Origin: a virus
Lineage: Duplodnaviria; Heunggongvirae; Uroviricota; Caudoviricetes
IMG/VR virus record: IMGVR_UViG_2541047865_000003
Length of the DNA stretch: 35,749 nt
Strand: one strand, 5' to 3'
The notes below the pieces were generated by a model. It was not told where the DNA came from. It saw nothing but the letters and a program-made list of their open reading frames with translations, and ran no database searches. Both the position numbers and the translations under genes were made by a program. Positions within the stretch are counted from its first letter, which is position 1; the number at the start of each line of letters is the position of its first letter. Of the stretch, positions 1 through 32,308 are shown piece by piece.

Positions 1-1602
1 ATGTATAGAACTCACCGACAACACAGCCTGTTAAGCTCTGGTGGAGTGCCATCGTTTATTGGTGGGCTGGTGGTGTTTGTGTCGGCAGCGTTCAATGCAC
101 AAGCTGAAACCTGGTTCGATCCTGCCTTTTTCAAAGATGATCCCTCAATGGTGGCCGATTTGTCTCGTTTCGAAAAAGGACAAAAAATAACGCCAGGGGT
201 TTATCGTGTCGATATTGTTCTGAATCAGACAATTGTAGATACGCGCAACGTCAATTTTGTTGAGTTAACGCCAGAGAAGGGGATTGCCGCCTGTTTGACG
301 ACTGAAAGCCTGGATGCAATGGGTGTGAATACTGATGCGTTTCCGGCTTTTAAACAACTGGACAAACAAGCGTGTGCGCTATTGGCGGAGATTATTCCGG
401 ATGCCAGCGTAACTTTTAATGTGAATAAACTCCGTCTGGAAATTTCAGTACCGCAAATTGCTATAAAAAGTAACGCTCGTGGTTATGTCCCCCCTGAACG
501 TTGGGATGAAGGGATCAACGCGCTATTACTGGGATATTCATTTAGCGGGGCTAACAGTATTCATAGCAGCGCAGACAGTGATTCTGGCGACAGTTATTTT
601 CTGAATTTAAACAGTGGCGTTAATTTAGGCCCATGGAGATTGCGCAACAATTCAACATGGAGTCGTAGTAGTGGCCAAACCGCAGAATGGAAGAATCTCA
701 GCAGCTATTTGCAACGGGCGGTTATTCCTCTGAAAGGCGAACTGACCGTAGGTGATGATTATACTGCAGGCGATTTTTTCGATAGTGTCAGCTTTCGTGG
801 TGTGCAGCTGGCGTCAGATGACAACATGCTGCCAGACAGCCTGAAAGGGTTTGCGCCTGTGGTGCGTGGTATCGCCAAAAGCAATGCCCAGATAACGATT
901 AAGCAAAATGGTTACACCATTTACCAAACTTATGTATCGCCTGGTGCTTTTGAAATTAGTGATCTCTATTCCACGTCGTCGAGCGGTGATTTGTTAGTTG
1001 AAATCAAAGAAGCGGACGGCAGCGTCAATAGCTACAGCGTACCGTTTTCCAGCGTGCCATTACTCCAGCGTCAGGGGCGAATCAAATACGCGGTGACACT
1101 GGCGAAATACAGAACCAATAGTAATGAACAGCAGGAGAGCAAATTTGCCCAGGCCACGTTGCAGTGGGGCGGACCGTGGGGAACGACATGGTATGGTGGT
1201 GGACAATATGCTGAATATTACCGTGCCGCCATGTTTGGTCTGGGATTTAACCTTGGCGATTTCGGAGCAATTTCGTTCGATGCGACCCAGGCGAAGAGTA
1301 CGCTGGCAGACCAAAGCGAACATAAAGGTCAGTCATATCGTTTTCTGTATGCCAAAACGCTCAACCAATTGGGCACTAATTTTCAATTGATGGGCTATCG
1401 CTATTCGACGTCGGGTTTCTACACCCTTTCCGACACCATGTATAAACATATGGATGGCTACGAATTTAATGACGGTGATGATGAAGATACGCCGATGTGG
1501 TCGCGTTATTACAATTTGTTTTACACCAAACGTGGCAAACTGCAGGTCAATATCTCCCAGCAATTAGGCGAGTACGGTTCGTTTTATTTAAGTGGTAGCT
1601 GA
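1..1602 (+). CDS. Fimbrial outer-membrane usher protein (FimD/PapC family), 5' fragment; reading frame ends at the prophage junction
   Basis: 533-aa ORF with a signal-peptide-like N-terminus (…AAFNAQA) and FimD-like motifs (ADLSRFEKGQ, PGVYRVDI, RGYVPPERWDEGINA, LASDDNMLPDSLKGFAPV, GQSYRFLY, YRYSTSGFY, FYLSGS). Ushers are ~850 aa; here the frame stops at TGA 1600-1602, where Mu-end-like sequence begins. True start may lie upstream of the window. Confidence 0.8.
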   Translation: MYRTHRQHSLLSSGGVPSFIGGLVVFVSAAFNAQAETWFDPAFFKDDPSMVADLSRFEKGQKITPGVYRVDIVLNQTIVDTRNVNFVELTPEKGIAACLTTESLDAMGVNTDAFPAFKQLDKQACALLAEIIPDASVTFNVNKLRLEISVPQIAIKSNARGYVPPERWDEGINALLLGYSFSGANSIHSSADSDSGDSYFLNLNSGVNLGPWRLRNNSTWSRSSGQTAEWKNLSSYLQRAVIPLKGELTVGDDYTAGDFFDSVSFRGVQLASDDNMLPDSLKGFAPVVRGIAKSNAQITIKQNGYTIYQTYVSPGAFEISDLYSTSSSGDLLVEIKEADGSVNSYSVPFSSVPLLQRQGRIKYAVTLAKYRTNSNEQQESKFAQATLQWGGPWGTTWYGGGQYAEYYRAAMFGLGFNLGDFGAISFDATQAKSTLADQSEHKGQSYRFLYAKTLNQLGTNFQLMGYRYSTSGFYTLSDTMYKHMDGYEFNDGDDEDTPMWSRYYNLFYTKRGKLQVNISQQLGEYGSFYLSGS

Positions 1603-1677
1603 TGCGCCGCGCGATAAATGCGCCCATTTCCGTGAGATAAATGGCACCGCTGCGGCGTTTCAATATTTGAAAAAGAA
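1603..1677. repeat. Prophage terminal region with two direct repeats of a GATAAATG-containing motif (candidate transposase-binding sites)
   Basis: Begins 5'-TGATGCGCCGCGCGATAAATGCG, resembling the Mu right-end R1 consensus (TGAAGCGGCGCACGAAAAACGCG, recalled from memory). GATAAATG occurs at ~1613-1620 and ~1636-1643, about 23 bp apart; Mu end sites are ~22 bp units. Confidence 0.45.
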
Positions 1678-2259
1678 TTACAATCCTACCGCGTCATCCT
1701 TCCTCTGACTATCTACCGGAAAATACCGGTAGAGCGTCGATAACCCCACCCCGTAGATAATGGCCAGTTGCTGGCGGGTATGCCCCTTAGCCAATAGCCG
1801 CCCAATCTGTTCTCGCTCATGAGGCTTTAATGCGTTGGGCCTTCCACCTATGCGTCCCTGTGCTCTGGCTGCTGCTAACCCGGCCAATGTTCGTTCGACG
1901 ATCAACTCACGTTCCATTTCCGCCAGTGCCGACATCACATGGAAAAAGAAACGCCCCATGGCAGTGCTGGTATCAATACTGTCTGTTAAAGAGCGGAAGT
2001 GGGCACCGCGTTCATGTAACTCTGATATCAGTGCGATCAGGTTCTTAACGCTGCGCCCCAGCCTGTCCAGTTTCCACACGACCAGGGTGTCTCCGCTATT
2101 AACGCACTTTAAAGCGCGTTTCAGACCGGGGCGGCTGGCAACTTTTCCGCTCATACGGTCTTCAAAAATGCGGTCACAGTTTGCGCTTATGAGTGCATTA
2201 CGCTGTAAATCGCTGTTCTGGTCGATTGTTGATACGCGGATATAACCAATGACGGCCAT
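1678..2259 (-). CDS. gin: Serine-recombinase DNA invertase (Gin/Hin/Cin/Pin family)
   Basis: 193-aa product from MAVIGYIRVSTIDQNSDLQRNAL…, closely matching the Gin/Hin N-terminus (catalytic Ser in VST, C-terminal HTH …STLYRYF). ATG at 2257-2259 preceded by a GGAGGAG RBS. The track ORF 1678..2421 is an upstream in-frame extension. Confidence 0.85.
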   Translation of the reverse strand: MAVIGYIRVSTIDQNSDLQRNALISANCDRIFEDRMSGKVASRPGLKRALKCVNSGDTLVVWKLDRLGRSVKNLIALISELHERGAHFRSLTDSIDTSTAMGRFFFHVMSALAEMERELIVERTLAGLAAARAQGRIGGRPNALKPHEREQIGRLLAKGHTRQQLAIIYGVGLSTLYRYFPVDSQRKDDAVGL

Positions 2260-2321
2260 CAATTCTCCTCCTCTATGTCGCGGTGGGAGGATTTTTACAG
2301 ATTTCGCTATGTGTAACCGCT

Positions 2322-2347
2322 TTTCCAAAAACCTTGGTTTGGGAGAA
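2322..2347. repeat. gix/hix-like recombination crossover site (copy next to gin)
   Basis: 26-bp site TTTCCAAAAACC-TT-GGTTTGGGAGAA, resembling the Hin hix consensus TTCTTGAAAACC-AA-GGTTTTTGATAA. Inverted relative to the 4154-4179 copy, sharing a ~21-bp identical core. Confidence 0.75.
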
Positions 2348-2800
2348 GGTTCGGCATTACCCGTTGGTGTGCCTGTCCCGTGGCCTTCCGCCACTCCGCC
2401 AACAGGCTGGCTAAAATGCAATGGTGCGGCTTTTTCTGCTGAAGAATACCCGGAACTGGCAAAGGTTTATCCGACAAATAAATTGCCTGATTTACGCGGT
2501 GAATTTATTCGTGGCTGGGATGACGGACGTGGAGTGGATGCCGGGCGACAATTATTATCTTCACAGGGGGATGCAATAAGAAATATTGAGGGATTCGCAG
2601 ATGGCGGGATCGGTATGTCTTTTGATGCAATCAGAGGGGCTTTTTACGATGCAGGAACACGATCAGCGAGAATGCCGAATAACACAACTACTATAGACAA
2701 AACCGATGACCTTGGATTCGACGCCTCTCGTGTCGTGCCAACAGCTAATGAAAACCGTCCACGTAACATCGCCTTTAATTATATTGTGAGGGCTGCATAA
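2348..2800 (+). CDS. Alternative tail-fibre C-terminal variable segment (Sv'), no own start; would fuse to the constant S N-terminus after inversion
   Basis: Frame open through the crossover site, encoding the same NLGLGE junction as the S gene, then a receptor-binding-like region (PVGVPVPWPSATPPTGWLKCNGAAFSAEEYPELAKVYP). Stop at 2798-2800 overlaps the start of the downstream assembly gene. Confidence 0.65.
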   Translation, partial: GSALPVGVPVPWPSATPPTGWLKCNGAAFSAEEYPELAKVYPTNKLPDLRGEFIRGWDDGRGVDAGRQLLSSQGDAIRNIEGFADGGIGMSFDAIRGAFYDAGTRSARMPNNTTTIDKTDDLGFDASRVVPTANENRPRNIAFNYIVRAA

Positions 2801-3393
2801 TGAAACCTGTTTTTGATGAAAATGGGCTGGCTACAGTGCCGGGTGATATGCGTTGTTTTTATTATGATGCAGTAACGTCTGAATATACGGGCTGGTCTGA
2901 TGAATATATTAATACTGGCGTAAGTATGCCCGCCTGTTCCACTGGTATTGACCCGGGCGAATACATTCCGGGGAAAGTGGCAGTATTTACGGGTAAGGGA
3001 TGGAGCCATGAAGAAGACCACCGCAATGAGACTGTTTACTCAATCGAAAATGGCGCAGCTGTTACAGTGGATTATATCGGTGCCATCAAAGACGGTTATG
3101 TCACGCTTTCACCGTTAACGCCATACGATAAATGGGATGGTGAGAAATGGGTGACAGATACTGAGGCACAGCATAGTGCCGCACTAGACGCGGCAGAAGC
3201 ACAGCGCCAGTCGCTGATTGATGCTGCAATGGCTTCCATCAGTCTGATTCAACTGAAATTACAGGCCGGGCGGAAGCTGACGCAGGCAGAAACAACCCGA
3301 CTTAACGCCGTGCTGGATTATATTGACGCGGTGACGGTAACAGATACCAGCACTGCGCCGGATGTCATCTGGCCTGAACTGCCGGAGGCGTAG
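2800..3393 (+). CDS. Tail-fibre assembly protein (U'-like, alternative orientation)
   Basis: 197 aa with the conserved C-terminal assembly-chaperone motif (…DTSTAPDVIWPELPEA). TAATG overlap with Sv'. Confidence 0.75.
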   Translation: MKPVFDENGLATVPGDMRCFYYDAVTSEYTGWSDEYINTGVSMPACSTGIDPGEYIPGKVAVFTGKGWSHEEDHRNETVYSIENGAAVTVDYIGAIKDGYVTLSPLTPYDKWDGEKWVTDTEAQHSAALDAAEAQRQSLIDAAMASISLIQLKLQAGRKLTQAETTRLNAVLDYIDAVTVTDTSTAPDVIWPELPEA

Positions 3394-3805
3394 GCCATTC
3401 AATATCTGGCGCACCGGAAGTATCGACCAGTTCCAGTGTGTCCAGATAATCCAGCCACAAATTATATTGCGCCAGTTCCTCACCTTTCAGGCGACCAATC
3501 GCCGCTTTACCAGGCCATTGCTTACTGTTTATGTATTCGTTGACCTGATTAATCAATTGCTGCTTTTCCAGTTCGGCTGCGGCAATTTGTTCCTCATGAG
3601 TTGGCGGTGGAATATCAATCCATGCAGGCATTCCGTCGATGACACCTCTGTATTTTCCTTCTGGTGCTTCCTTCATAAATTCGGCGGCAACAGTGTCGTC
3701 AATTTCGATTCCATCATCGGGCCATTCGCCGGATTCCTGATAAGCGATTTTAAGCTCCACAGGGAAAAACGCATTTTTATCGGCACTGAAAATATATTTC
3801 TGCAT
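3365..3805 (-). CDS. Tail-fibre assembly protein (U-like, currently expressed orientation)
   Basis: 146 aa, C-terminus …DTSGAPDIEWPTPP. Immediately follows the S gene; 3' end converges on and overlaps the U' 3' end. Confidence 0.75.
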   Translation of the reverse strand: MQKYIFSADKNAFFPVELKIAYQESGEWPDDGIEIDDTVAAEFMKEAPEGKYRGVIDGMPAWIDIPPPTHEEQIAAAELEKQQLINQVNEYINSKQWPGKAAIGRLKGEELAQYNLWLDYLDTLELVDTSGAPDIEWPTPPAVQAR

Positions 3806-3807
3806 TT

Positions 3808-4653
3808 CTACCGTCCTATCGAAATATAACTGAATCTGTATTGCTGTGAGATATCACTGGTTGCCACACGCCACGCTGAATTACTGATATGTTCAAAATT
3901 TACAGACAAAACCTGCGGGGCAGGATTCGACGGGTCTGACTGAACGGCATCAGACATAACACTGACTGAAACCATCGGCTGATTAGGGAATGGTATAGGG
4001 AAGTGTCCACTGATAAAGCGGGTCGTGTTTCCTGAAAAAGTGCCAAACTGAACAATATATCCACCTGGTAGCCTGAACCATCCCGAACCAGAAGCGAATG
4101 CTCCCATATCCGGTATCTGATTATCTCCTGTGCCCACATCCCTTTTCGCCGCTTCTCCCAAACCAAGGTTTTGAAGAAAGGCTGCCTTATCGGGAATATC
4201 CGCACCGTTCTGGTCTTTGGCCAGTTTCTCCGCCAGCTTGTTCAGCACTGTGGTCGCAAAGTTCGGATCGTTGCCAAGGGCATCAGCCAGCTCTTTCAGC
4301 GTATCCAGTGTTTCTGGGGCTGTACCTGCAAGCGCAGCAATCGCCCTCGCCACAAATTCTGTCGTCACCAGCTTTTTGCTGTTGTCATTAGCTGCAGGCG
4401 TGGGGGCTGTTGGCGTACCCGTGAATGTTGGGCTGGCCTTCGTCGCATACTGGGTATGCGGGTCGGCCGCTGCGATGTGTTTCGCGAGATCTGAACCGCC
4501 TTTTTCAACCTGCTGTTTCAGGTATGAAGTACGGCTGGCCAGCTGTTTAGCCTGACGGTTAGAAATTCCATCAGGCCCACCCAGTACGGGGTCGGAGACC
4601 TCAATCTGGTAGATGCCGTCTTCCCACTGCGGGGTTTCGGGTAGATTTGCCAT
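3808..4653 (-). CDS. Tail-fibre protein (constant N-terminal part 4180..4653 plus variable part inside the invertible segment)
   Basis: 281 aa with a typical tail-fibre N-terminus (MANLPETPQWEDGIYQIE…) and the hix-encoded NLGLGE junction. Crossover site lies inside the coding sequence at 4154-4179. Confidence 0.85.
   Translation of the reverse strand: MANLPETPQWEDGIYQIEVSDPVLGGPDGISNRQAKQLASRTSYLKQQVEKGGSDLAKHIAAADPHTQYATKASPTFTGTPTAPTPAANDNSKKLVTTEFVARAIAALAGTAPETLDTLKELADALGNDPNFATTVLNKLAEKLAKDQNGADIPDKAAFLQNLGLGEAAKRDVGTGDNQIPDMGAFASGSGWFRLPGGYIVQFGTFSGNTTRFISGHFPIPFPNQPMVSVSVMSDAVQSDPSNPAPQVLSVNFEHISNSAWRVATSDISQQYRFSYISIGR
4154..4179. repeat. gix/hix-like recombination crossover site (copy inside the tail-fibre gene)
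   Basis: TTCTCCCAAACC-AA-GGTTTTGAAGAA. Inverted partner of 2322-2347. Confidence 0.75.
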
Positions 4654-4655
4654 AA

Positions 4656-5240
4656 TTAACTGCTCCCGTGGTTATAGCTGCCGTCATAGTTGACGGTGTT
4701 GTTGTAGCGAATGGCGACAGACTGATACTCCAGGCTCGCCAGATGGCAGCGGGCCGGAGCAAAGGCAGCGAGCGTCTGGCGTAACAGAGCCGCCTGATCG
4801 TTAGTGATGGGCTGTTGAAGGATGACGCGATAGACCGCCCAGGCTTCCGCATCGCCGTGGACAAAAAGCCCGTTATAAGTGTGTTTGCCGTCGTATCCGA
4901 TCTGGCCAGTGCCTTCAATCAGATCCACTTCGCCGAAGCCGAAACGGCGGATAATTTCCCGGATTGACCACGGCGTCCCTTTGTAGCGGTGCAACTCGAT
5001 AGCGGATTTGATAAGCGTGCGACGTACATCGTCTGACTCCGCCAGTTCCCAGCCGTCACCGAACAGCGAGAACTGTTCGCCCAGCCATGGCAGCGCAGAG
5101 CTGTCGACAATATCGACGAGGTAGACCATCAACACGCTCAGGTCGATGCTGTCCAGTCTTCCGGCCAGATTGCCCAGTGCCCTGAAGCTGATATCACCCT
5201 CAAGTGCTGGCGGGAGTTTTAGCGTCTCAGCCATCGACAA
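4656..5240 (-). CDS. Tail protein (P2 gpI-like / Mu gp48-like)
   Basis: 194 aa directly between the baseplate J-like gene and the tail-fibre gene. Call rests on position and size; start uncertain (overlaps upstream gene). Confidence 0.6.
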   Translation of the reverse strand: MSMAETLKLPPALEGDISFRALGNLAGRLDSIDLSVLMVYLVDIVDSSALPWLGEQFSLFGDGWELAESDDVRRTLIKSAIELHRYKGTPWSIREIIRRFGFGEVDLIEGTGQIGYDGKHTYNGLFVHGDAEAWAVYRVILQQPITNDQAALLRQTLAAFAPARCHLASLEYQSVAIRYNNTVNYDGSYNHGSS

Positions 5241-6330
5241 CTCCCGTGATAGTTACGTTGATGGCGGTACAGTTAGCCCACTCATTCTCTGCAAGAACAA
5301 CAAGTTCAAGGCCGGGTAGTTCAACCTGGTAAACACCGCTGACAGTCAACACGGCGTTAATTTGTCCGGGGACGATATCCACACCCAGCTTGGTTCTTCG
5401 GGCTGCAACCCAGTTCTGGATGGCGTTGTTTGCCTCGTCTTTTACCGAGTTTGCATCCTGATTGCGGTAGATGGTGATCTGGGCATCTATGGTGTAATCC
5501 ACCTGCACGGGCGTTTTAGCCCGGACGGTATCAGTGAGCGGCCTGACTTTTTCGCCTGAGCAGAAGCTCTCTACCAGCGTGAGGATGCTGTCGTCCGGCA
5601 GGCCGGTACTGAGCAGTGGATACAGCTCTACGGTGCCCGGAACCGGGGAGAGCACGGCGACGTCAACGATGTTGGGATGGGCCTGCATGGCATGAAAGCG
5701 GTATGCCATACGGCTTCCGGCATTTGTGAAAGACTCCGGGGCCAGTTTGATACGTTCCCGAAGTCTGTCATTGTCTTCCTGCTCTGAACCGCCAGAGCTG
5801 GCTGCCAGATTGGTTACCTGCAGGTCGACGTTATCAATCTCATCGAGCAACTGACTGACCTGCGCAGGTTGCCAGTCGTTGCCAGCGGCTCCTGGTTCGG
5901 TACAGGTGGCCGTGGCATTGACCAGCAGCAATCCGGCTTTCAGTACCACGTCCGTATCGGTGGCAAAAATAATGCTGTCGGAAGCGCTGACACGGGTACC
6001 TGCCGGGATCAGCACATCAATGGCCAGTTCCTCATCCACGGAGAACTGGAGCGTGGTGGTAGCAGGCTGCGCGGCAAGGCGGTACACACCAACCAGTTCA
6101 CCGAGGTAGTCAATCATCGGCTCACGGGCAAAGGCGACCAGATTCTGTTTGGCCGCTTCCTGCGCCGCCACCCTGACCAGCATTTCACGGTATGCCCACA
6201 GGTCAATCAGCAGGCGCTCAGCCTGAGCGGGGTACAGCGTTTTGCCGGTTGCAGCTTCGTACTGTGCAATCATTTCTGCCGTGATTTTGTCGGCATCACG
6301 TTCAATAAAGTCGGGTTCTGTCAGCGCCAT
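5227..6330 (-). CDS. Baseplate J-like protein (Mu gp47 / P2 gpJ family)
   Basis: 367 aa, positioned between the gpW-like and gpI-like genes. Overlapping stop/start couples it to neighbours. Confidence 0.75.
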   Translation of the reverse strand: MALTEPDFIERDADKITAEMIAQYEAATGKTLYPAQAERLLIDLWAYREMLVRVAAQEAAKQNLVAFAREPMIDYLGELVGVYRLAAQPATTTLQFSVDEELAIDVLIPAGTRVSASDSIIFATDTDVVLKAGLLLVNATATCTEPGAAGNDWQPAQVSQLLDEIDNVDLQVTNLAASSGGSEQEDNDRLRERIKLAPESFTNAGSRMAYRFHAMQAHPNIVDVAVLSPVPGTVELYPLLSTGLPDDSILTLVESFCSGEKVRPLTDTVRAKTPVQVDYTIDAQITIYRNQDANSVKDEANNAIQNWVAARRTKLGVDIVPGQINAVLTVSGVYQVELPGLELVVLAENEWANCTAINVTITGVVDG

Positions 6331-6668
6331 AGCAGCTCCTGAGTCCGGGTCTGTCCTTCAGAGCCTTTCCAGCTCACCCGGAGCGTAAGATGTTCGCCGT
6401 CGACGGCGGGTTTAACCGACATCAGCTGGCAGCGAGGCTCCCAGCGGCGGATGGCATCGACGGATTCGCGCACCACATGCGGGATAGCCCGGTCGATGGG
6501 CCAGTCGATATAAAGATGCAGATTGCTGCCGAACTCCGGGCGATGCGGGTCGCTGCCGCGAGGAGTTCGCAGGATGATTTGAATGGCCTGCCAGATATCA
6601 TCCAGCCCCCGGACGATTTCGCCGGGGGCCTGCAGTGCCGGTTGCCAGAATACTGAGGTTGTTTTCAT
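6321..6668 (-). CDS. Baseplate wedge protein (GPW/gp25-like)
   Basis: 115 aa, size and position typical of gpW/gp25 between spike and J genes. Confidence 0.7.
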   Translation of the reverse strand: MKTTSVFWQPALQAPGEIVRGLDDIWQAIQIILRTPRGSDPHRPEFGSNLHLYIDWPIDRAIPHVVRESVDAIRRWEPRCQLMSVKPAVDGEHLTLRVSWKGSEGQTRTQELLWR

Positions 6669-6722
6669 GGGGGCAGTATTGCCCCTGTGCGGGAACGCCG
6701 ATATTAAAGGCGTTTAAGAAGG

Positions 6723-7235
6723 TCAGTGGGAATGGTGATTGGAGTTCTGGCCGTCAGACAGCATGCTGCCTGTGGAGTGGGCATTGCCGTTGATTTCAAG
6801 GTTACCGTTCACCGTGGTGGTATCAGCGGTCAAATCAATGGTTTTCCCCTTCAGGCTGATACCTACCGCAACCTCGATCACCACATGCTCGATACCTCCT
6901 TTGACCGTCAGCGTATGGGTCGCGCGGTTATAGCTGAACTCTGCGCCATCCGCGTATTTCGTGCCCCGGACGTTTTTGTCGCTGAACGGCGGTTTATCGA
7001 CTTCTGAGTACACCGCGCCCAGAATGACACCATCCTCGCCGTTGGCATCGAGCAGCACCTCAACCTGCTCCCCCACGTCAGGGAGCCAGTAATCCTTGTT
7101 ATCCTGGGTATTGCGCTGTAGCACGTTAAGCCAGTTAGTGCGCAGGTTATCGCACTCAGGCAAACGAACGCGGGCCTGAACCTTGTCGGCATCGACGGCG
7201 CTGACCGTACCGACCTGACGGGTGACGCCTGCCAT
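6723..7235 (-). CDS. Baseplate spike / assembly protein V-like
   Basis: 170 aa after the gpD-like gene. His-rich C-terminal tip (NSNHHSH) as seen in metal-binding spike apexes. Confidence 0.65.
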   Translation of the reverse strand: MAGVTRQVGTVSAVDADKVQARVRLPECDNLRTNWLNVLQRNTQDNKDYWLPDVGEQVEVLLDANGEDGVILGAVYSEVDKPPFSDKNVRGTKYADGAEFSYNRATHTLTVKGGIEHVVIEVAVGISLKGKTIDLTADTTTVNGNLEINGNAHSTGSMLSDGQNSNHHSH

Positions 7236-8404
7236 TATTTCTTCTCCTTTATTACCGTGGACGTGCTGCCGTCCGGTTTATAGACGGTCAGCGTCTGGGT
7301 TTTTCCTGTCTTTTTACCTTTCTTCGCCTTGCCCTGCGTGACCGGCCCTCGTGCCACTTCCAGTTCTGTGATGTAGCCGTTGTTACGGTCAAACTCATGG
7401 CGGGCAGTAGTTATCAGCCATGGCCCGGATAACTGACCAAAGCCCACCAGTTCAATTTTGTTGCCTGCTGTCAGTTGAGGTGTCCCCATCAGCGTCAGGG
7501 AGCCGTTCTGCTGGTATTCGTTATGTCTGGCCAGCGCCGAATCTGCTTTAATCCGTGCGGTGTCCGGGTCGCTGACGCGGCTGTTGACCTTAAGTGAGTC
7601 GGCACTGGTGACCTTACCGCCTTTGGTTTGTTTGTCGCTTTCGCTGGTACCGCCATCAGCTTCATAAACGATCAACTTTTTATCACTGCTCTTCTGGTGT
7701 TTTACCTTCGCGGATTTGTAGACGCGGTTGATGGTGTCACGCAGGGAAAAACGGGCCACATCCTGCGGCTTAAGCTGCTTAACTGGCTCCTGACCGCGCA
7801 GCGTGGCCAGATGAGAAAAAACCAGCTGGTCGCTGACCACTTTTACGGCATAACCATACTCGCTGGCCAGTCGACGCAGGAAACCCACGTCCGTTTCAGC
7901 ATACTGGGTCACCCGGTCAATTTTGATGGACTCAATACTGCCAACCAGCTTCAGTTGATGCTTTTTGGCAATCCGTCCGGCGATGGCCGCCAGCGTGGTG
8001 CTCTCGAAACCACGACTGGATTTTGTCCGCAGGGCGTTGTTGACCGACGTGGCCACGCCCCGGATAGCGACAACGGACGCGGGCGAACTCACCTCGATCT
8101 CGTCTATAGAGAACGTACCGCAGGACAGCAGCTTCTCGCCCTGATAACCCATTTTCAGCGTCAGCGTGTCACCCTTGCCCGGATACCACTTATCCAGCCA
8201 GCGGCCATCGGTGTCGTCCAGTTCCACCTCAATGGTATCGGACTCGCTTTTGATGTTATCGCTGTAGGTTACGCGGGTGACATAGGGGGCGATATCGGTG
8301 GTGATGTTCTTCTGCAGATACCATAGCGTGAACACCGGACTCAGAACATCGCTGACGCCGGTTAACGCTGATGCGGCTTGTGCAGGGCTGTTTATCTCAG
8401 CCAT
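7235..8404 (-). CDS. Tail protein D-like (P2 gpD / Mu P-like baseplate hub)
   Basis: 389 aa; position after the X-like and U-like genes. 1-nt stop/start overlap with the V gene. Confidence 0.7.
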   Translation of the reverse strand: MAEINSPAQAASALTGVSDVLSPVFTLWYLQKNITTDIAPYVTRVTYSDNIKSESDTIEVELDDTDGRWLDKWYPGKGDTLTLKMGYQGEKLLSCGTFSIDEIEVSSPASVVAIRGVATSVNNALRTKSSRGFESTTLAAIAGRIAKKHQLKLVGSIESIKIDRVTQYAETDVGFLRRLASEYGYAVKVVSDQLVFSHLATLRGQEPVKQLKPQDVARFSLRDTINRVYKSAKVKHQKSSDKKLIVYEADGGTSESDKQTKGGKVTSADSLKVNSRVSDPDTARIKADSALARHNEYQQNGSLTLMGTPQLTAGNKIELVGFGQLSGPWLITTARHEFDRNNGYITELEVARGPVTQGKAKKGKKTGKTQTLTVYKPDGSTSTVIKEKK

Positions 8405-24703: not shown

Positions 24704-25430
24704 AGCTGCCGCCTCCCCAGGTGAGATAACGCGGGGCCAGTTCGTGCAGGATGCGCTGCGGATAATGACGGTTCTCCCGCCAGTTGGCAGTGCTGCGTCC
24801 GGCATTCACCGTGGCGACATGACCAAACCAGCGGGTGCTGTCCAGCCCCTGCTGCGAGGCCAGCCGTTTGTCCCGCTGTACCCAGCCCAGACCACCGTTA
24901 TAGCCTGACAGCGTCATGGCCATACGCTCGCAGTCATTGACGGCGCTGACGCGTTGCCACAGCCAGCGGTCATAGCTGACCAGCGCCCGGATGGCCCAAG
25001 ACGGATTAAACGGTTCACGGCTGTTAAGCCCCGGCATCAGCTGACTTATCCAGTCAGCGGTGGTGGGCATAAACTGCGCCAGTCCCTGAGCGCCAACCGG
25101 CGAGACCGCATCAGGTCGCCAGCCGCTTTCCTGATGCAGCTGCGCGGCGAAGTCGGCCACCGGCGCAGACATTCCCCATTCAAGCCGGGCATTACGGATC
25201 ACATCGTCGCGATACTGCAGCGCGGTCTGCGGTGGCTGGGCAGCGCGGGCCTGACTGAAGAAGCCGCCACACCAGAGCAGCCAGGCTACCGTTACTGAAC
25301 CAAAGAGCTGCCACCAGAAACTGTGCTTACCCGTTCGGGCCTGCCCGTGGCGGGCCAGTTCGATGCCCAGCCCCAGCAGTACCAGCACGGCCCAGACAAC
25401 CTGAGGCCAGTACATATAGAGGGTCATCAT
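24693..25430 (-). CDS. Lytic transglycosylase (SLT domain) endolysin with N-terminal membrane anchor
   Basis: SLT catalytic motif (…LHQESGWRPDAVSPVGAQGLAQFMP…); hydrophobic N-terminal segments; sits between the holin-like gene and the spanins. Confidence 0.8.
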   Translation of the reverse strand: MMTLYMYWPQVVWAVLVLLGLGIELARHGQARTGKHSFWWQLFGSVTVAWLLWCGGFFSQARAAQPPQTALQYRDDVIRNARLEWGMSAPVADFAAQLHQESGWRPDAVSPVGAQGLAQFMPTTADWISQLMPGLNSREPFNPSWAIRALVSYDRWLWQRVSAVNDCERMAMTLSGYNGGLGWVQRDKRLASQQGLDSTRWFGHVATVNAGRSTANWRENRHYPQRILHELAPRYLTWGGGSCVD

Positions 25431-25780
25431 TAAAGCCCCATCGCTACGGCCAGACAGACTGCAGCAACAATCAGCGCACGGCGGATTAGCGCAGCAGAAA
25501 AGACCAGGTGAAGGCCAGTCTGGACAGGGAAGCGACCATCAGCCATCAGCCTGTCATCATGCTTCAGGTACTGACCGGGACGGGCTTTGGGGAAAAGCGA
25601 ACGGTCAAGCCAGTAGCCCAATACTGCCGCCAGCGTGATGAGTGATAGCTTGTAGACAACCACCGGCAGCTGCTGGGGCGATACCAGACCGATGGTGCCG
25701 AGCAGCAGCACAGCGGTCAGCAGCCAGCCGCTGAGACGTGGCTTTTTAACAGGGGGAATGAATTTTTTCAGGTTTTTCAT
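25430..25780 (-). CDS. Putative holin (three hydrophobic helices)
   Basis: Start at MKNLKKF… preceded by an AAGGAG RBS; three predicted TM segments; first gene of the late arm with ATGA overlap to the endolysin. Confidence 0.5.
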   Translation of the reverse strand: MKNLKKFIPPVKKPRLSGWLLTAVLLLGTIGLVSPQQLPVVVYKLSLITLAAVLGYWLDRSLFPKARPGQYLKHDDRLMADGRFPVQTGLHLVFSAALIRRALIVAAVCLAVAMGL

Positions 25781-26027
25781 GAGCGTCTCCTTGTGTAGTG
25801 GAGACAGCATCACAAATGGTCGGGGAAAGGGATTTTAAACAGCGTTAATAGTGAGGATGCAGACGTGAACCGCATGATGGCTTTGAAAGAACGACCAGCC
25901 CGGTGCGGTAACACCAGGCTGGTCATCAACCCACAGGTATGCACTGTGAGCCGACCAGGGTTCAGTCAGTCTCGCGAGACCAGACTAGCCTGCCATATTT
26001 TCATTGATTGCAAAAGGCTTACGGATA

Positions 26028-26798
26028 ATGAAAGAACAATCTTTACCCATCGTCCCATGGATTGGCGGTAAACGTCGTCTGGCGAAGCATATTTTACCAT
26101 TGTTTCCGGCCCATACCTGCTATGTGGAGCCGTTCTGCGGGGCAGCTGCGCTCTATTTCCTAAAGACTCCCAGCAAGACCGAAGTCATTAACGATATCAA
26201 CGGGGAACTGGTGAACCTCTATCGGGTGGTCAAGCATCATCTGGAAGAATTTATTCGCCAGTTCAAATGGGCGCTGGTCAGCCGTCAGATTTACAAATGG
26301 TTGCAGGATACGCCGGAAGAAACGCTCACCGACATTCAGCGGGCGGCCCGGTTCTACTACCTGCAGAAACAGGCATTTGGCGGCAAGGTCGCCGATCACA
26401 CATTCGGTACCTCTACAACCAGTGCGCCGCGCTTCAATTTGCTGCGTATTGAGGAAGAACTGTCGATGGCACACCTGCGCCTGTCGAGAACGCTGATAGA
26501 GCATCTGGACTGGCACCAGTGCATAGAGCGATATGATCGCCCGCATACGCTGTTCTACTGTGACCCACCGTACTGGGGAACGGAAGGCTATGGTGTGGAG
26601 TTCGGGCTGGAAAACTATGATCACATGGCAGATTTAGCGCGAAGGATCAAAGGGAAGATGATTATATCAGTGAACGATATCCCGGAAATGCGGCAGGTAT
26701 TCAACGGTCTGAACATGCAGTCGGTTGATATCAGCTACAACCTTAAGGTAACAGGCAAACCCAGCCCGAAGAAAGAGCTGGTAATTTGTAATTTTTGA
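26028..26798 (+). CDS. DNA adenine methyltransferase (Dam-like, N6-adenine)
   Basis: SAM-binding motif (FCGAAALYF) and catalytic DPPY motif. Start chosen at MKEQSLPIVPWIGGK…; the track ORF begins 24 nt upstream. Confidence 0.75.
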   Translation: MKEQSLPIVPWIGGKRRLAKHILPLFPAHTCYVEPFCGAAALYFLKTPSKTEVINDINGELVNLYRVVKHHLEEFIRQFKWALVSRQIYKWLQDTPEETLTDIQRAARFYYLQKQAFGGKVADHTFGTSTTSAPRFNLLRIEEELSMAHLRLSRTLIEHLDWHQCIERYDRPHTLFYCDPPYWGTEGYGVEFGLENYDHMADLARRIKGKMIISVNDIPEMRQVFNGLNMQSVDISYNLKVTGKPSPKKELVICNF

Positions 26799-27414: not shown

Positions 27415-27825
27415 TTAACCCGTATTTTTTAATCTTTCGAACGCTGCGGACAGCTCCTTAAGCTGTTTTTCCATATCAATCATTCGCTGTTTTTCCTCAG
27501 CGCCTCGCAGCAACTCTTTTCGCACCTCTGGCTCCAGTTGGTTGAGCAGCTCCAATAACTTCAGATCAGACTGGTTGAAATGCTGCTCCTGATTAGCTGG
27601 CTGTGCTTTCTCTACCCCAACAGCTTCCCCTTTACCAGTAAGTAGCCAATCTATTGATATGTTCAAATGGGTGCTTAGCGCAACAAGAGCCTCTGCATTA
27701 GGTTCTCTCTCTCCACGCAGATAGTTTTGAAGTGAGCGATATGGAATTTTTGACAAGTCTGACAATGCCTTAATTGTCAGACCCTTAGCATCCATCGCTT
27801 CGCGCAATCTCTCTTTTATACTCAT
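27415..27825 (-). CDS. Prophage repressor (XRE-family HTH)
   Basis: Start at MSIKERLREAMDAKGLTIKALSDLSKIPYRSLQNYLRGER… (HTH), C-terminal coiled-coil-like region. Divergent from the early operon across an ~88-bp promoter/operator region. Confidence 0.7.
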   Translation of the reverse strand: MSIKERLREAMDAKGLTIKALSDLSKIPYRSLQNYLRGEREPNAEALVALSTHLNISIDWLLTGKGEAVGVEKAQPANQEQHFNQSDLKLLELLNQLEPEVRKELLRGAEEKQRMIDMEKQLKELSAAFERLKNTG

Positions 27826-27841
27826 TTGAACATATCTCAAT

Positions 27842-27869
27842 TTGACATACCCGTTTGGGTGCGTACAAT
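27842..27869 (+). promoter_or_regulatory. Candidate sigma70 early promoter (TTGACA-16-TACAAT) with overlapping operator dyad
   Basis: TTGACA at ~27842-27847 and TACAAT at ~27864-27869, upstream of the Ner-like gene. Inverted repeat TTGGGT(N11)ACCCAA straddles the -10; a further ACCCAA lies ~20 bp downstream. Confidence 0.5.
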
Positions 27870-27913
27870 AGACCCAATAGAGTACATCATAACCCAACAG
27901 GAACACGGTGCAT

Positions 27914-28138
27914 ATGAACAAACAACAAGTTCGGGCACGGCTGGTTGAAAGAGGCAGTAGCTTGCGCCAGTTCGCGCTTAACGCGGGCTATGAGCCACGA
28001 ACAGTCACCCAGGCTGTCAGCCGCTGGGCAGGCAAAAGCGAACTTCCACGCGGTCGTTTGACTTATCGGATTTTGCGAGACCTTTCGGTCGCAATAGGCA
28101 AAGAAGTTACCCCCGGCATCCTCAAGGAGGCGTCATGA
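27914..28138 (+). CDS. Ner-like DNA-binding early regulator
   Basis: …LRQFALNAGYEPRTVTQAVSRWAGKSE… resembles the Mu Ner core; first gene of the early operon, divergent from the repressor. Confidence 0.65.
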   Translation: MNKQQVRARLVERGSSLRQFALNAGYEPRTVTQAVSRWAGKSELPRGRLTYRILRDLSVAIGKEVTPGILKEAS

Positions 28139-29361: not shown

Positions 29362-31131
29362 ATGAGTGCCGCCCTGACTGAACGACTGGTTTATGTTGCC
29401 CGCGCGGCACGTGACGCGGGGCATGGTAAGCGTGGTGCGATATATGATGCCGCCTGCGCCGAACTGGGCATTTCCCGCGCCACCCTGCTGCGCAAGCTGA
29501 AGGAGGTATCAGTGACTGACAAACGTAAAAAACGCGCCGATGCCGGGCGCAGTGCCCTGAGCCGCGACGAAGCCGCGCTGATATCTGCCACGCTGCGCGA
29601 GGCCACCCGTAAGAACGGTAAGCGCCTGTATTCCATCGCGGATGCGGTGGAGACCCTGCGGTCAAACGGCTTTATCACTGCTGGCAGAACGGACGAGGCC
29701 ACAGGCGAGTTTTTCCCGCTGTCCGAGGACACCATCAGCCGCGCCCTGCGGAACTATGGTCTGCACCCGGAACAGCTTGACGCACCGGCCCCGTCGTCCG
29801 AGATGGCCAGCCTGCATCCCAATCACGTCTGGGAGATTGATGCCTCACTTTGTACGCTTTACTACCTGAGCAACGGCCATAAAGGGTTGCAGGTGATGGA
29901 CAGCTCGAAGTTCTACAAGAACAAGCCTGCCAACATCGCCCGCATCGCCAGTGACCGCGTGTGGAGTTACGAGATTACCGACCATACCAGCGGCTGGATT
30001 TACGTTGAGTACGTGATGGGTGCGGAATCTGGTGAGAACCTCTGTTCTGTGCTTATCAACGCCATGCAGGAGCGCGGCGGCGCGGACGTGCTGCACGGCG
30101 TGCCGAAAATACTCTACCTTGATCCCGGTTCGGCGAACACCGCTGGCATGACGAAAAACATGTGCCGCTCGCTGGGCATCAATCTGATAGCGCACAAGCC
30201 GCATAACGCCCGCGCCACCGGGCAGGTGGAAAAGGCCCGTGACATTATCGAACGTAAACTGGAGCCGGGTCTCAAATTCCAGCCGGTTCATAGCCTGGAC
30301 GAACTGAACGCGCTGGCGGTGAAATGGCGCAGCCACTTTAACGCCACGGCGGTCCACAGCCGCCACGGTAAAACCCGCACGGATATCTGGCTGAAGATTA
30401 CTGCTGACCAGCTGAAAAAAGCGCCATCCGTTGAGGTTTGCCGCGAACTGGCGGTGGCCGCACCGGAACTCCGTAAGGTCACACCAAAACTGCGCGTCTC
30501 GTTCCGGGGCAATGAGTTTGACGTTTCGACGGTACCGGGCGTACTGGTCGGCGAAAAACTGATGATTACCCGTAACCCGTGGCGCAGCGATGTGGCGCAG
30601 GTGGTGCTGACCGGTGAGGACGGTCACGAGACGTTCTTCCTGGTCGAAGAGGTCAGAAAGAACGAGTTCGGCTTTGCCGAAAGCGCGGCGGTATTTGGCG
30701 AAAACTACAAAGCCCTGCCGGAGACCCCGGCGCAGACGGCGGCAAAAGAAATCGAAGAGCTGGTTACGGGCACCGATAACGCCACCGATGCAGCTGCTGC
30801 ACGCAAGGCGAAGGCGCTGCCGTTCGGCGGGCGACTTGACCCGTACAAACATATCGACGACACCACGCTTCCGGCCTATATGCCGAAGCGCGGTCAGGCT
30901 TCAGACGTGCGCGGGCCGCGTATTGAGCAGCGTCCGCTGACCCATGTGGAGGCGGCGAAAGCCCTGCGCGAGAAGTTTGGCGCTAACGGCCATATCTGGA
31001 CGCCGGAACATTACCGCCAGTTAACGGCGCAGTACCCGGATGGCGTACCTGAAGCCGCGCTGGATGAGGTGATGGTTACCCTGACCACTCCGGCCCGCAA
31101 CAGCGTTATCAGCATCGTTAACGGTAACTGA
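29362..31131 (+). CDS. DDE transposase (Mu A-like)
   Basis: 589 aa with an N-terminal DNA-binding region and candidate DDE residues (WEIDAS, LYLDPGS, HNARATGQVEKAR); followed by the AAA+ ATPase partner; RBS GGAGG. Confidence 0.8.
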   Translation: MSAALTERLVYVARAARDAGHGKRGAIYDAACAELGISRATLLRKLKEVSVTDKRKKRADAGRSALSRDEAALISATLREATRKNGKRLYSIADAVETLRSNGFITAGRTDEATGEFFPLSEDTISRALRNYGLHPEQLDAPAPSSEMASLHPNHVWEIDASLCTLYYLSNGHKGLQVMDSSKFYKNKPANIARIASDRVWSYEITDHTSGWIYVEYVMGAESGENLCSVLINAMQERGGADVLHGVPKILYLDPGSANTAGMTKNMCRSLGINLIAHKPHNARATGQVEKARDIIERKLEPGLKFQPVHSLDELNALAVKWRSHFNATAVHSRHGKTRTDIWLKITADQLKKAPSVEVCRELAVAAPELRKVTPKLRVSFRGNEFDVSTVPGVLVGEKLMITRNPWRSDVAQVVLTGEDGHETFFLVEEVRKNEFGFAESAAVFGENYKALPETPAQTAAKEIEELVTGTDNATDAAAARKAKALPFGGRLDPYKHIDDTTLPAYMPKRGQASDVRGPRIEQRPLTHVEAAKALREKFGANGHIWTPEHYRQLTAQYPDGVPEAALDEVMVTLTTPARNSVISIVNGN

Positions 31132-31141
31132 GGAGGAAGGC

Positions 31142-32308
31142 ATGCTGGTACTGAAGCAACAACTGAAAGAGGCCCGCATCCCGCAGGCGGTGGTGGCAAG
31201 AGCCGTCGCCGTTTCCGAGGCCACGCTGGCCCAGATTGTGAACCATAACGAGTGGCCACGCACCAGCCCCGAAGAGGTACGCCAGCGTCTGGCGTTGTAT
31301 CTGGAAAGTAAGGGGATTGATACAGCGAAAAGTTTTGATGCTGCACAGGGCGCTGTCACGCCCCGTACAGCGGGTACTACCGATAAAACCAACCTCAGTG
31401 AGGAAGAGAACATGTTACTCAAAAAGCAGGTGTTATTTCCAGCAACCAAAAAAGCGTTTGGCCTTTTCCGTGATCCGTTCGCCGATGAAGCCATGCAGGG
31501 CGCGGACGATGTGTTCACCACGCCGGATATCCGCTACGTGCGTGAGGCGCTGTTCCAGACCGCCCGCCATGGTGGCTTTCTGGCGGTTATCGGCGAGTCC
31601 GGTGCGGGTAAATCCACGCTGCGCCGCGACCTGATTGAACGCGTCAACCGCGAGAACGCGCCGGTGATTGTAATTGAGCCATACATCATCGCCATGGAAG
31701 ACAACGACGTGAAGGGCAAAACCCTGAAGGCGGCAGCTATCGCCGAGGCCATCATCAGCACCATCGCGCCGCTGGAGAGTATCAAACGCAGCCAGGACGC
31801 CCGCTTCCGCCAGTTGCACCGCGTCCTGAAGGACAGCAGTCAGGCGGGTTTCAGCCACGTTCTGGTGATTGAGGAGGCCCACAGCCTTCCCATTCCGACG
31901 CTGAAGCACCTTAAACGCTTCTTCGAACTGGAGTCCGGCTTCAAAAAACTGCTGTCCATCGTGCTGATTGGCCAGCCTGAACTGGCGGACAAACTGTCCG
32001 AACGCAACATGGAAGTCCGTGAGGTCGTCCAGCGCTGCGAGGTGGTTGAATTGCTGCCGCTGGACAACAGCCTCGAAGAGTTTCTGACGTTCAAACTGCA
32101 ACGTGCCGGTAAGCAGCTGGCCGACATCATGGACGCCAGCGCAGTGGAAGCCATCCGCGCCCGTCTGAGCAATCTGGGTAGTAGCCGTAAAAGCATGGTC
32201 AGCCTGCTGTATCCGCTGGCCGTCAGTAACCTGGTGATAGCCGCCATGAATCTGGCTGCTGAAATCGGGGTTCCGCAGGTCAACGCCGACGTCGTCAAAG
32301 GAGTTTAA
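31142..32308 (+). CDS. Transposition ATPase / target-DNA activator (Mu B-like AAA+)
   Basis: Walker A GESGAGKST, Walker B VLVIEEAH, N-terminal HTH-like region; immediately downstream of the transposase. Confidence 0.8.
   Translation: MLVLKQQLKEARIPQAVVARAVAVSEATLAQIVNHNEWPRTSPEEVRQRLALYLESKGIDTAKSFDAAQGAVTPRTAGTTDKTNLSEEENMLLKKQVLFPATKKAFGLFRDPFADEAMQGADDVFTTPDIRYVREALFQTARHGGFLAVIGESGAGKSTLRRDLIERVNRENAPVIVIEPYIIAMEDNDVKGKTLKAAAIAEAIISTIAPLESIKRSQDARFRQLHRVLKDSSQAGFSHVLVIEEAHSLPIPTLKHLKRFFELESGFKKLLSIVLIGQPELADKLSERNMEVREVVQRCEVVELLPLDNSLEEFLTFKLQRAGKQLADIMDASAVEAIRARLSNLGSSRKSMVSLLYPLAVSNLVIAAMNLAAEIGVPQVNADVVKGV

Follow-up and report, generated by a model that had tools for sequence, protein, structure and literature searches.

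Does the tail-fibre locus of this virus hold one fibre gene with an unattached tail gene nearby, or a single gene with two alternative ends? The DNA in question is a stretch of 35,749 nt (hereafter the window) from a tailed phage of the Caudoviricetes (IMG/VR record IMGVR_UViG_2541047865_000003), in which a segment of ∼1.8 kb carries two oppositely directed sets of a fibre tip and a tail-fibre assembly chaperone. A preliminary description, made from the letters alone, proposed that this segment is invertible and that the DNA invertase gene next to it is of the Gin type. We find that the segment is very probably a two-state, invertase-driven tail-fibre switch of the same type as the G segment of phage Mu, the C segment of phage P1 and the P segment of the Escherichia coli K-12 element e14. 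It is best labelled an invertible tail-fibre segment of the e14-P type, carried by a BcepMu-like transposable prophage. The system is of a known kind, the classic host-range switch of Mu, P1 and e14, and it involves no new mechanism.

The repeat search revealed a 21-nt inverted repeat (AAAACCTTGGTTTGGGAGAAG) with arms at 2328–2348 and 4152–4172 that are 100% complementary and separated by 1803 nt. With up to three mismatches allowed, the 21-mer is confined to these two loci across the 35.7-kb window; it had no occurrences in 100 dinucleotide-preserving shuffles. The centre of the repeat reads ACC-TT-GGT, and we defined the crossover sites as 12 bp on each side of the non-palindromic central dinucleotide, which yields two 26-bp sites (Table 1) with a centre-to-centre distance of 1831 bp. 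The core and the inner half-sites are identical in the two sites, while the outer half-sites mismatch at three positions. Both 26-bp sites can be aligned with Mu gix, with P1 cixL/cix and with the e14 sites, and they have the architecture expected of Hin/Gin/Cin/Pin sites: two imperfectly symmetric 12-bp half-sites and a 2-bp core common to both sites, in inverted orientation. Being non-palindromic, the central dinucleotide matches between the two sites only in inverted orientation, so that recombination between them would result in inversion, not deletion.

The whole window was scanned for a third crossover site, which would make the arrangement shufflon-like, with a core pattern and with a 26-mer profile, and only the two sites were found. 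The profile, derived from the sites of Mu, P1, e14 and the window itself, gave the two sites scores of 21–22 and the next-best 26-mer in the window 14.4. Having two sites only, the segment is a simple two-state arrangement.

Both sites lie within fibre coding sequence. The peptide NLGLGE is read in frame from codons 2330–2347 of the plus-strand open reading frame (ORF) ending at 2800, as well as at residues 162–167 of a minus-strand fibre of 281 amino acids (aa), encoded at 3808–4653, whose codons 159–167 are spanned by the right site. In the present orientation this fibre is made of a constant N-terminal part situated outside the segment (Sc) and a tip with a gp53-like domain (Sv). The second tip (Sv′), on the opposite strand, is without a constant part of its own in the present orientation; it matches the short tail fibre structure 9cuy (E-value 9e-33), as well as T4 gp37 and gp12. 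Each tip has its chaperone (U and U′, respectively), with the start codon of U′ overlapping the stop codon of Sv′ (ATAATG). Residues 143–171 of the fibre are 65.5% identical to residues 150–178 of the Mu S protein, and phmmer matched the Mu S structures 5yvq and 8ju3 on that stretch. Genes for P2-I-like, baseplate-J-like, gpW-like and gpV-like proteins are located upstream of the fibre gene on the minus strand.

When the DNA between the two central dinucleotides was swapped in silico, the result was an uninterrupted fibre of 317 aa (Sc joined to the collar-domain tip) followed by the 197-aa chaperone. The segment thus has the layout of Mu G, P1 C and e14 P: the crossover is within the fibre ORF, there are two opposed sets of tip and chaperone, and both orientations are in frame. 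In these respects the preliminary description was accurate, having reported inverted sites with a 21-bp core, the NLGLGE peptide in both fibre frames and two convergent cassettes. By their Pfam domains the cassettes are Collar with Caudo_TAP on the plus strand and Gp53-like_C with Caudo_TAP on the minus strand. Of its two hix/gix-like 26-bp sites the left one was placed exactly, while the right one, given as 4154–4179, has to be moved by one base.

The 3′ ends of the two chaperone genes converge with a 29-nt overlap at 3365–3393, where one stretch of DNA encodes both C-termini on opposite strands. A further inverted repeat (I12; 3312–3327 and 3440–3455) reflects the LDYI/LDYL motif common to both chaperones.

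The same phage is also found in nature in the flipped state, the breakpoints lying within the 21-nt core. We compared contigs encoding exactly the window invertase with the native window and with the window inverted in silico (related loci are designated by L numbers). One of them (L015; GCA_000460035.1, KE701470.1) is 100% identical to window positions 1–7259, in the native orientation. Another (L016; GCA_958338245.1) contains the same phage at a different chromosomal position, with an identical invertase and with flanks that are 100% and 99.97% identical. Against the inverted window L016 gives a single alignment (1599–7259, 99.47%); against the native window it falls into three pieces, the middle one reversed, with junctions at 2328/2348 and 4152/4172. 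The 317-aa fibre of L016 matches the predicted chimera at 312 of 317 residues; the swap of the fibre C-terminus by inversion, which had been postulated for this locus, is thus both in frame in silico and carried by a relative.

Orientation opposite to that of the window was also found in L006 (strain CFSAN051542) and L001 (phage Phi06_2974 B), whose cassettes are more diverged; in its two flanks L001 matches the window at 100% and 99.9%. The alignments to relatives break at the left site. Among complete E. coli genomes with at least 80% junction coverage, the native left junction (invertase next to collar tip) was found in 18 and the inverted one (invertase next to gp53-like tip) in 14. In addition, the first base of two Logan contigs, which were assembled directly from public read sets, falls exactly on the inner edge of the core, window position 2348. 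These contigs are L023 (SRR958552; same elfC insertion as in the window; seen in four samples) and L022 (SRR29636669). As the k of 31 used for Logan assemblies exceeds the 21-nt length of the repeat, a contig stop at 2348 is what one expects from a branch between two continuations, and the contig starts fit the presence of both orientations in those sequenced cultures.

Two other candidates for orientation evidence were rejected. Contigs L029–L032 have fibre-side ends that stop 100–120 nt beyond the core; in these phages both cassettes may be gp53-like, with longer repeats, and the contig ends are therefore uninformative on mixing of orientations. The records OM835952 and OM835953 of Klebsiella phage KP12, considered as two orientations of one phage, are instead two distinct prophage-like contigs, one BcepMu-like and the other P2-like.

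The enzyme that would carry out the inversion is encoded beside the left site, outside the segment. The gene shares its direction of transcription with the fibre operon, and its stop codon is ∼77 bp from the phage end. The protein shares 67.5% identity with Mu Gin, 67.4% with e14 PinE and 66.5% with P1 Cin; the reference pair Gin and PinE, the sole pair within the family that was compared, is 77.7% identical. Judged by these values, the window protein clearly belongs to the Hin/Gin/Cin/Pin family, in which it forms a slightly outlying branch. The adjacent gin of the preliminary description is thus confirmed as an intact family invertase, but the label ‘Gin-type’ was too narrow: the protein is equally distant from Gin and Pin, so the term should be read as ‘Hin/Gin/Cin/Pin family’. 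E-values were 5e-80 for the Gin structures 4m6f and 3uj3 versus 1e-29 for gamma-delta resolvase, with 1.8e-17 for the Hin DNA-binding domain. The active-site serine motif is present (GYIRVSTIDQ, aligned to GYVRVSTNDQ of Gin). The His and Met residues of helix E, whose mutation makes Hin and Gin independent of Fis, are wild type.

A candidate recombinational enhancer is suggested, by homology to the annotated enhancer of P1 cin, within the 5′ part of the invertase gene. Enhancers of this family act in cis and have two Fis sites spaced by ∼48 bp; those of the Gin, Cin and Pin systems are located in the same part of the gene. In the P1 record the enhancer occupies cin nt 19–90, which corresponds, with the gene starts aligned, to nt 22–93 of the window invertase gene. 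This interval contains two Fis-like 15-mers, at 2221–2235 (GTATCAACAATCGAC, gene strand; gene nt 25–39) and at 2172–2186 (GCGCAAACTGTGACC; gene nt 74–88). They are the two best matches, and those of Mu gin, P1 cin and e14 pinE occupy the corresponding positions in the alignment. The proximal 15-mer and the left-site centre are ∼106 bp apart; in the Hin system the enhancer has two Fis sites and is located ∼100 bp from one recombination site (PMC3798978).

Table 1. Positions of the crossover sites, the genes of the segment and associated features in the window
Feature	Position	Strand	Description
Left (invertase-proximal) crossover site	2322–2347	+	TTTCCAAAAACC TT GGTTTGGGAGAA; crossover dinucleotide TT at 2334–2335
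Right (fibre-proximal) crossover site	4153–4178	−	TTCTTCAAAACC TT GGTTTGGGAGAA on the minus strand; crossover dinucleotide AA at 4165–4166
Sv′, silent alternative fibre C-terminus	2348–2800	+	150 aa past NLGLGE; Pfam Collar (phage tail collar domain), E-value 3.5e-15
U′, tail-fibre assembly chaperone for Sv′	2800–3393	+	197 aa; Pfam Caudo_TAP, E-value 2.8e-26
U, tail-fibre assembly chaperone for the expressed tip	3365–3805	−	146 aa; Pfam Caudo_TAP, E-value 2e-34
Sv, currently expressed fibre C-terminus	3808–4152	−	Residues 168–281; Pfam Gp53-like_C, E-value 1.2e-8, at residues 194–281
Sc, constant fibre N-terminus, outside the segment	4171–4653	−	Residues 1–161; from the ORF list
DNA invertase (Hin/Gin/Cin/Pin family), outside the segment	1678–2259	−	Intact, 193 aa; Resolvase, E-value 2.6e-46 (residues 3–136); HTH_7, E-value 1.6e-14 (residues 139–181)
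Candidate recombinational enhancer	2167–2238	.	Within the 5′ part of the invertase gene; homology to the annotated P1 cin enhancer
Spacer between left site and invertase start	2260–2321	−	Strong ribosome-binding site GGAGGAG; promoter presumed
Transposase	29362–31131		68% identical to BcepMu gp09, 57% to B3 transposase

The minus-strand late operon comprises the gpJ-like, gpI-like and fibre genes, with the first 161 fibre codons (Sc) outside the segment and the remaining codons and the chaperone gene inside. The proposed mechanism is as follows. Dimers of the serine invertase would bind both 26-bp sites, and the sites would be brought together, probably on a Fis-bound enhancer within the invertase gene. 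The enzyme would then cut both strands at the central TT/AA, rotate half of the complex by 180 degrees and religate, leaving the 1831 bp between the sites inverted. The predicted products are Sc with the gp53-like tip (281 aa) and chaperone U in the present orientation, and Sc with the collar-domain tip (317 aa) and chaperone U′ in the flipped one. Given the two orientations, a lysogenic culture should release two kinds of virions differing in receptor specificity. We infer catalysis by the window invertase, as well as its presumed dependence on Fis and the enhancer, from the properties of the family, in which inversion depends on Fis and DNA supercoiling; the predicted change of host range follows the homology with Mu and P1 and the differing domains of the two tips.

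Several observations weigh against a working switch. The evidence of inversion comes from relatives and Logan contigs, and a second related prophage sharing the junction 30-mer could equally end the Logan contigs at 2348. The Fis-like sites are matches at the level of the consensus, accompanied by many weaker ones. The host-range switch is predicted by homology. Finally, a sigma-70 consensus scan of 2260–2347 gave no promoter for the invertase. Terminator-like matches around the segment were not above the shuffle expectation.

The outcome of the promoter scan agrees with a frozen switch, in which the parts derive from an active ancestor but inversion no longer proceeds at a useful rate, the invertase being unexpressed or the enhancer defective, and only the gp53-like fibre is made. 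Such a state would also agree with the fact that most assembled relatives with the window backbone share the window orientation (L002, L003, L007, L008 and L015). Mu gin, however, is also weakly expressed from a poor promoter. Moreover, the invertase ORF and its catalytic motif are intact, as are the two sites, the two cassettes and the candidate enhancer; a nearly identical phage is found flipped (L016) and two Logan contigs break exactly at the core. We therefore regard a frozen switch as improbable.

The two-state switch of the window can be compared with the inversion systems already described. Its closest described relative is the P segment of e14, served by Pin, and not Mu G. In e14 the gene order is ymfQ (gpI-like), stfP, tfaP, tfaE (inverted), stfE (inverted) and pinE, which is the order seen here, and the segment has 1797 bp, compared with 1831 bp in the window (PMC12529663). 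The 16-mer flanking the e14 segment, TTGGTTTGGGAGAAGG (PMC12529663), is exactly the inner part of the window sites, and tfaP and tfaE have the same 29-nt convergent overlap as U and U′. At the DNA level the similarity is partial: 89.7% in the chaperone 3′ regions and 72% in the stfE–pinE region. The e14 segment is a demonstrated inverter, inversion having been measured in growing cultures (PMC4272514) and also reported in PMC12529663.

The two segments differ in several ways as well. The fibre tips have diverged, the gp53-like tip of the window being 24% identical to the StfP C-terminus. The constant part has ∼95 residues in e14 versus 161 in the window, where it is Mu-S-like just ahead of the site. 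Element e14 is a lambdoid defective remnant with stfE annotated as a pseudogene, whereas the carrier here is an apparently complete BcepMu-like transposable prophage. With cassette contents that are only partly homologous, the window segment is to be seen as a relative of the e14 segment and not as a copy of it.

The relation to e14 raises the question of whether the inversion mainly serves the host, by making a fibre-derived protein that blocks adsorption of other phages, as has been reported of PinQ and of the P segment in e14. The e14 inversion gives rise to StfE2, a protein with a gp53-like domain that inhibits T2 adsorption (PMC12529663), and the expressed tip in the window also carries a gp53-like domain. 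But e14 is a defective remnant, while the window segment ends a complete tail module of an apparently complete transposable prophage, the identical phage genome was deposited as phage Phi06_2974 B, and the resemblance of the tip to StfP is confined to the low identity given above. A main function of this kind is thus very unlikely here; it would, besides, be compatible with a role in virion host range, the two not being mutually exclusive. That the repeat is a mere by-product of two facing paralogous fibre genes with a conserved NLGLGE, and no recombination site, is scarcely credible: it does fall within coding sequence, with one peptide read from either frame, but all synonymous positions are identical over 21 nt with an abrupt drop on both sides, the outer half-site on the invertase side keeps the half-site consensus although it is in no functional ORF, the silent cassette comes without its own N-terminal part, and the breakpoints of rearrangement in relatives fall inside the core, the orientation polymorphism contradicting such an origin.

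The invertible switch shares with Mu G the overall arrangement: Sc is outside, Sv-U and U′-Sv′ are convergent inside, and the invertase gene is downstream, outside the segment and on the strand of Sc. The crossover falls at a homologous residue (162 here, 169 in Mu S), with GADIPDKAAFLQNLGLGE here and GADIPNKPLFIQNLGLQE in Mu S; the sites are similar, and both carriers are transposable phages with the invertase at the right end. The Mu G segment, however, is considerably longer. Its boundaries at 31966 and 35025 of the Mu record give 3059 bp, because the Mu tips have ∼320–335 aa, compared with 114 and 150 aa here; the remark in the preliminary description that the window segment is shorter than Mu G is therefore correct. 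Such shortness is normal for the P-segment type. Mu gix has TC as the central dinucleotide in place of TT, and Mu has com/mom, neither of which follows the window invertase. The window transposase, unlike that of Mu, is of the BcepMu/B3 type, with early genes diverging from late genes.

In the C/Cin system of P1, cixL has the same AAACCTTGGTTT centre as the window sites and the enhancer is annotated within the 5′ part of cin; the C segment, in contrast, is 4.26 kb long, and cin is upstream of the segment and reads towards it. The P1 C segment has long inverted repeats, and the Min system of p15B has six sites and many isomers, in contrast to the window with its two sites and hence two states. 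With the Hin/H segment of Salmonella the window system shares the recombinase family and the 26-bp site architecture, although the Fis enhancer here is a sequence-inferred candidate. The Salmonella invertase gene is within its segment and the segment carries a promoter, whereas the segment studied here carries alternative 3′ ends of genes.

In E. coli, P2-like and phiE255-like prophages also have invertible fibre segments (enteropathogenic E. coli (EPEC) E2348/69; ‘Bone’ isolates of sequence type 131, ST131). Sequencing has detected invertase-linked inversion of fibre tips in resident prophages (PMC4272514), and a preprint on ST131 described a Bcepmuvirus-like prophage with an invertase and fibre segments moving between prophages (10.1101/2022.05.07.487787). 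Neither the window phage nor its sites are described in these two reports.

The carrier of the segment appears to be an almost complete BcepMu-like transposable prophage inserted in elfC. Positions 1–1599 of the window are the 5′ part of this fimbrial usher gene, 100% identical to many E. coli genomes, and the phage begins at ∼1600 (TGATGCGCC...), interrupting elfC. In relatives with the same phage end the insertions are in yahI, csgC and yihT, next to napB and beside an EamA gene; such varied loci are as expected for a transposable phage. The transposase gene is followed by a gene for an AAA_22 ATPase, and early genes run rightward, late genes leftward. Unannotated GenBank contigs of Escherichia phage Phi06_2974 B match the window phage at 100% identity, contig KP12_2 at 94% and phage PhiKM at 85%; a literature search on Phi06_2974 B and PhiKM found nothing. 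Comparison with KM389306 places the other end of the phage ∼0.2 kb past the end of the window.

Several side observations concern the prophage and its relatives. Between the lysis genes (holin at 25430–25813, endolysin and spanin) and the repressor gene (27415–27921), the opposite strand carries a DNA methyltransferase gene (26004–26798, plus strand; PHROG 56, 2e-100). It looks like a moron-type insertion, in a phage without mom. In strain JCH8249, a 40,540-bp circular ‘plasmid’ (NZ_CP132021.1, L002) is made up of a related prophage and host flanks (yahJ and a truncated carbamate kinase gene) that are those found around the same prophage in the chromosome of strain GON1437. This molecule may be a circular product of transposition or excision, or else the result of mis-assembly or mislabelling. 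The 94%-identical phage of Klebsiella phage KP12 clone KP12_2 (L012, 655–1934) has a shorter segment with one annotated chaperone gene, and its taxonomy line, Vequintavirinae, is at odds with the BcepMu-like genome.

The segment also occurs in other surroundings. Roughly 2,800 E. coli genomes carry it. The fibre of phage SKA5 has a tip 98.4% identical to Sv, and the DNA of SKA5 aligns to the window from 2334, the crossover dinucleotide, to 4172 (99.9% over 1.84 kb), with nothing else aligning in 8 kb. In strain LWY24 a segment 99.8% identical is joined to a different baseplate module and a pinE-type invertase, which makes a third backbone. Conversely, L001, L018 and L019 share the flanks of the window at 100% identity as far as the core but carry diverged or different cassettes. 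We tentatively suggest, as a possibility short of an even chance, that besides being a switch the segment is a portable cassette, with the crossover sites serving as seams for swapping whole receptor-binding modules, each of two tips and two chaperones, between unrelated co-resident phages, possibly by recombination that the invertase mediates between the sites of different prophages. Homologous recombination in conserved flanks may be an alternative route of module exchange. The idea of exchange is itself already in the literature: inversion systems reportedly promote the exchange of fibre modules (Sandmeier and Arber). ‘Translocation’ of fibre segments is reported in the ST131 preprint (10.1101/2022.05.07.487787).

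Among relatives with an identical gpI-like protein or invertase (L018, L019, L024, L026, L028 and L033), the window backbone carries at least five cassette pairs. These include gp53-like with collar; gp53-like with gp53-like; a 326-aa tip without a Pfam match together with a gp53-like one; a 386-aa Gly_rich_2 tip with a 60-aa ORF; and a 314-aa tip. A different arrangement is seen in L014 (GCA_964040895.1, 4880–5005), where the invertase and phage end, identical to those of the window, run into the fibre N-terminus of another phage (of the Baseplate_J/Phage_Wedge1 type). Here ∼59 nt are left between two inverted cores and the interior of the segment is gone, which could be due to a deletion, to recombination between the sites of two prophages or to an assembly error.

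For annotation, the finding means that the 281-aa fibre and the orphan ‘phage tail protein’ beside the invertase are two states of one gene. Assemblies are expected to break or to differ at 2348 and 4152 for biological reasons and not through error. BcepMu-like transposable phages of E. coli carry a segment of the e14 P type, and the same tip module circulates in at least three phage backbones, which is useful for predicting or engineering host range.

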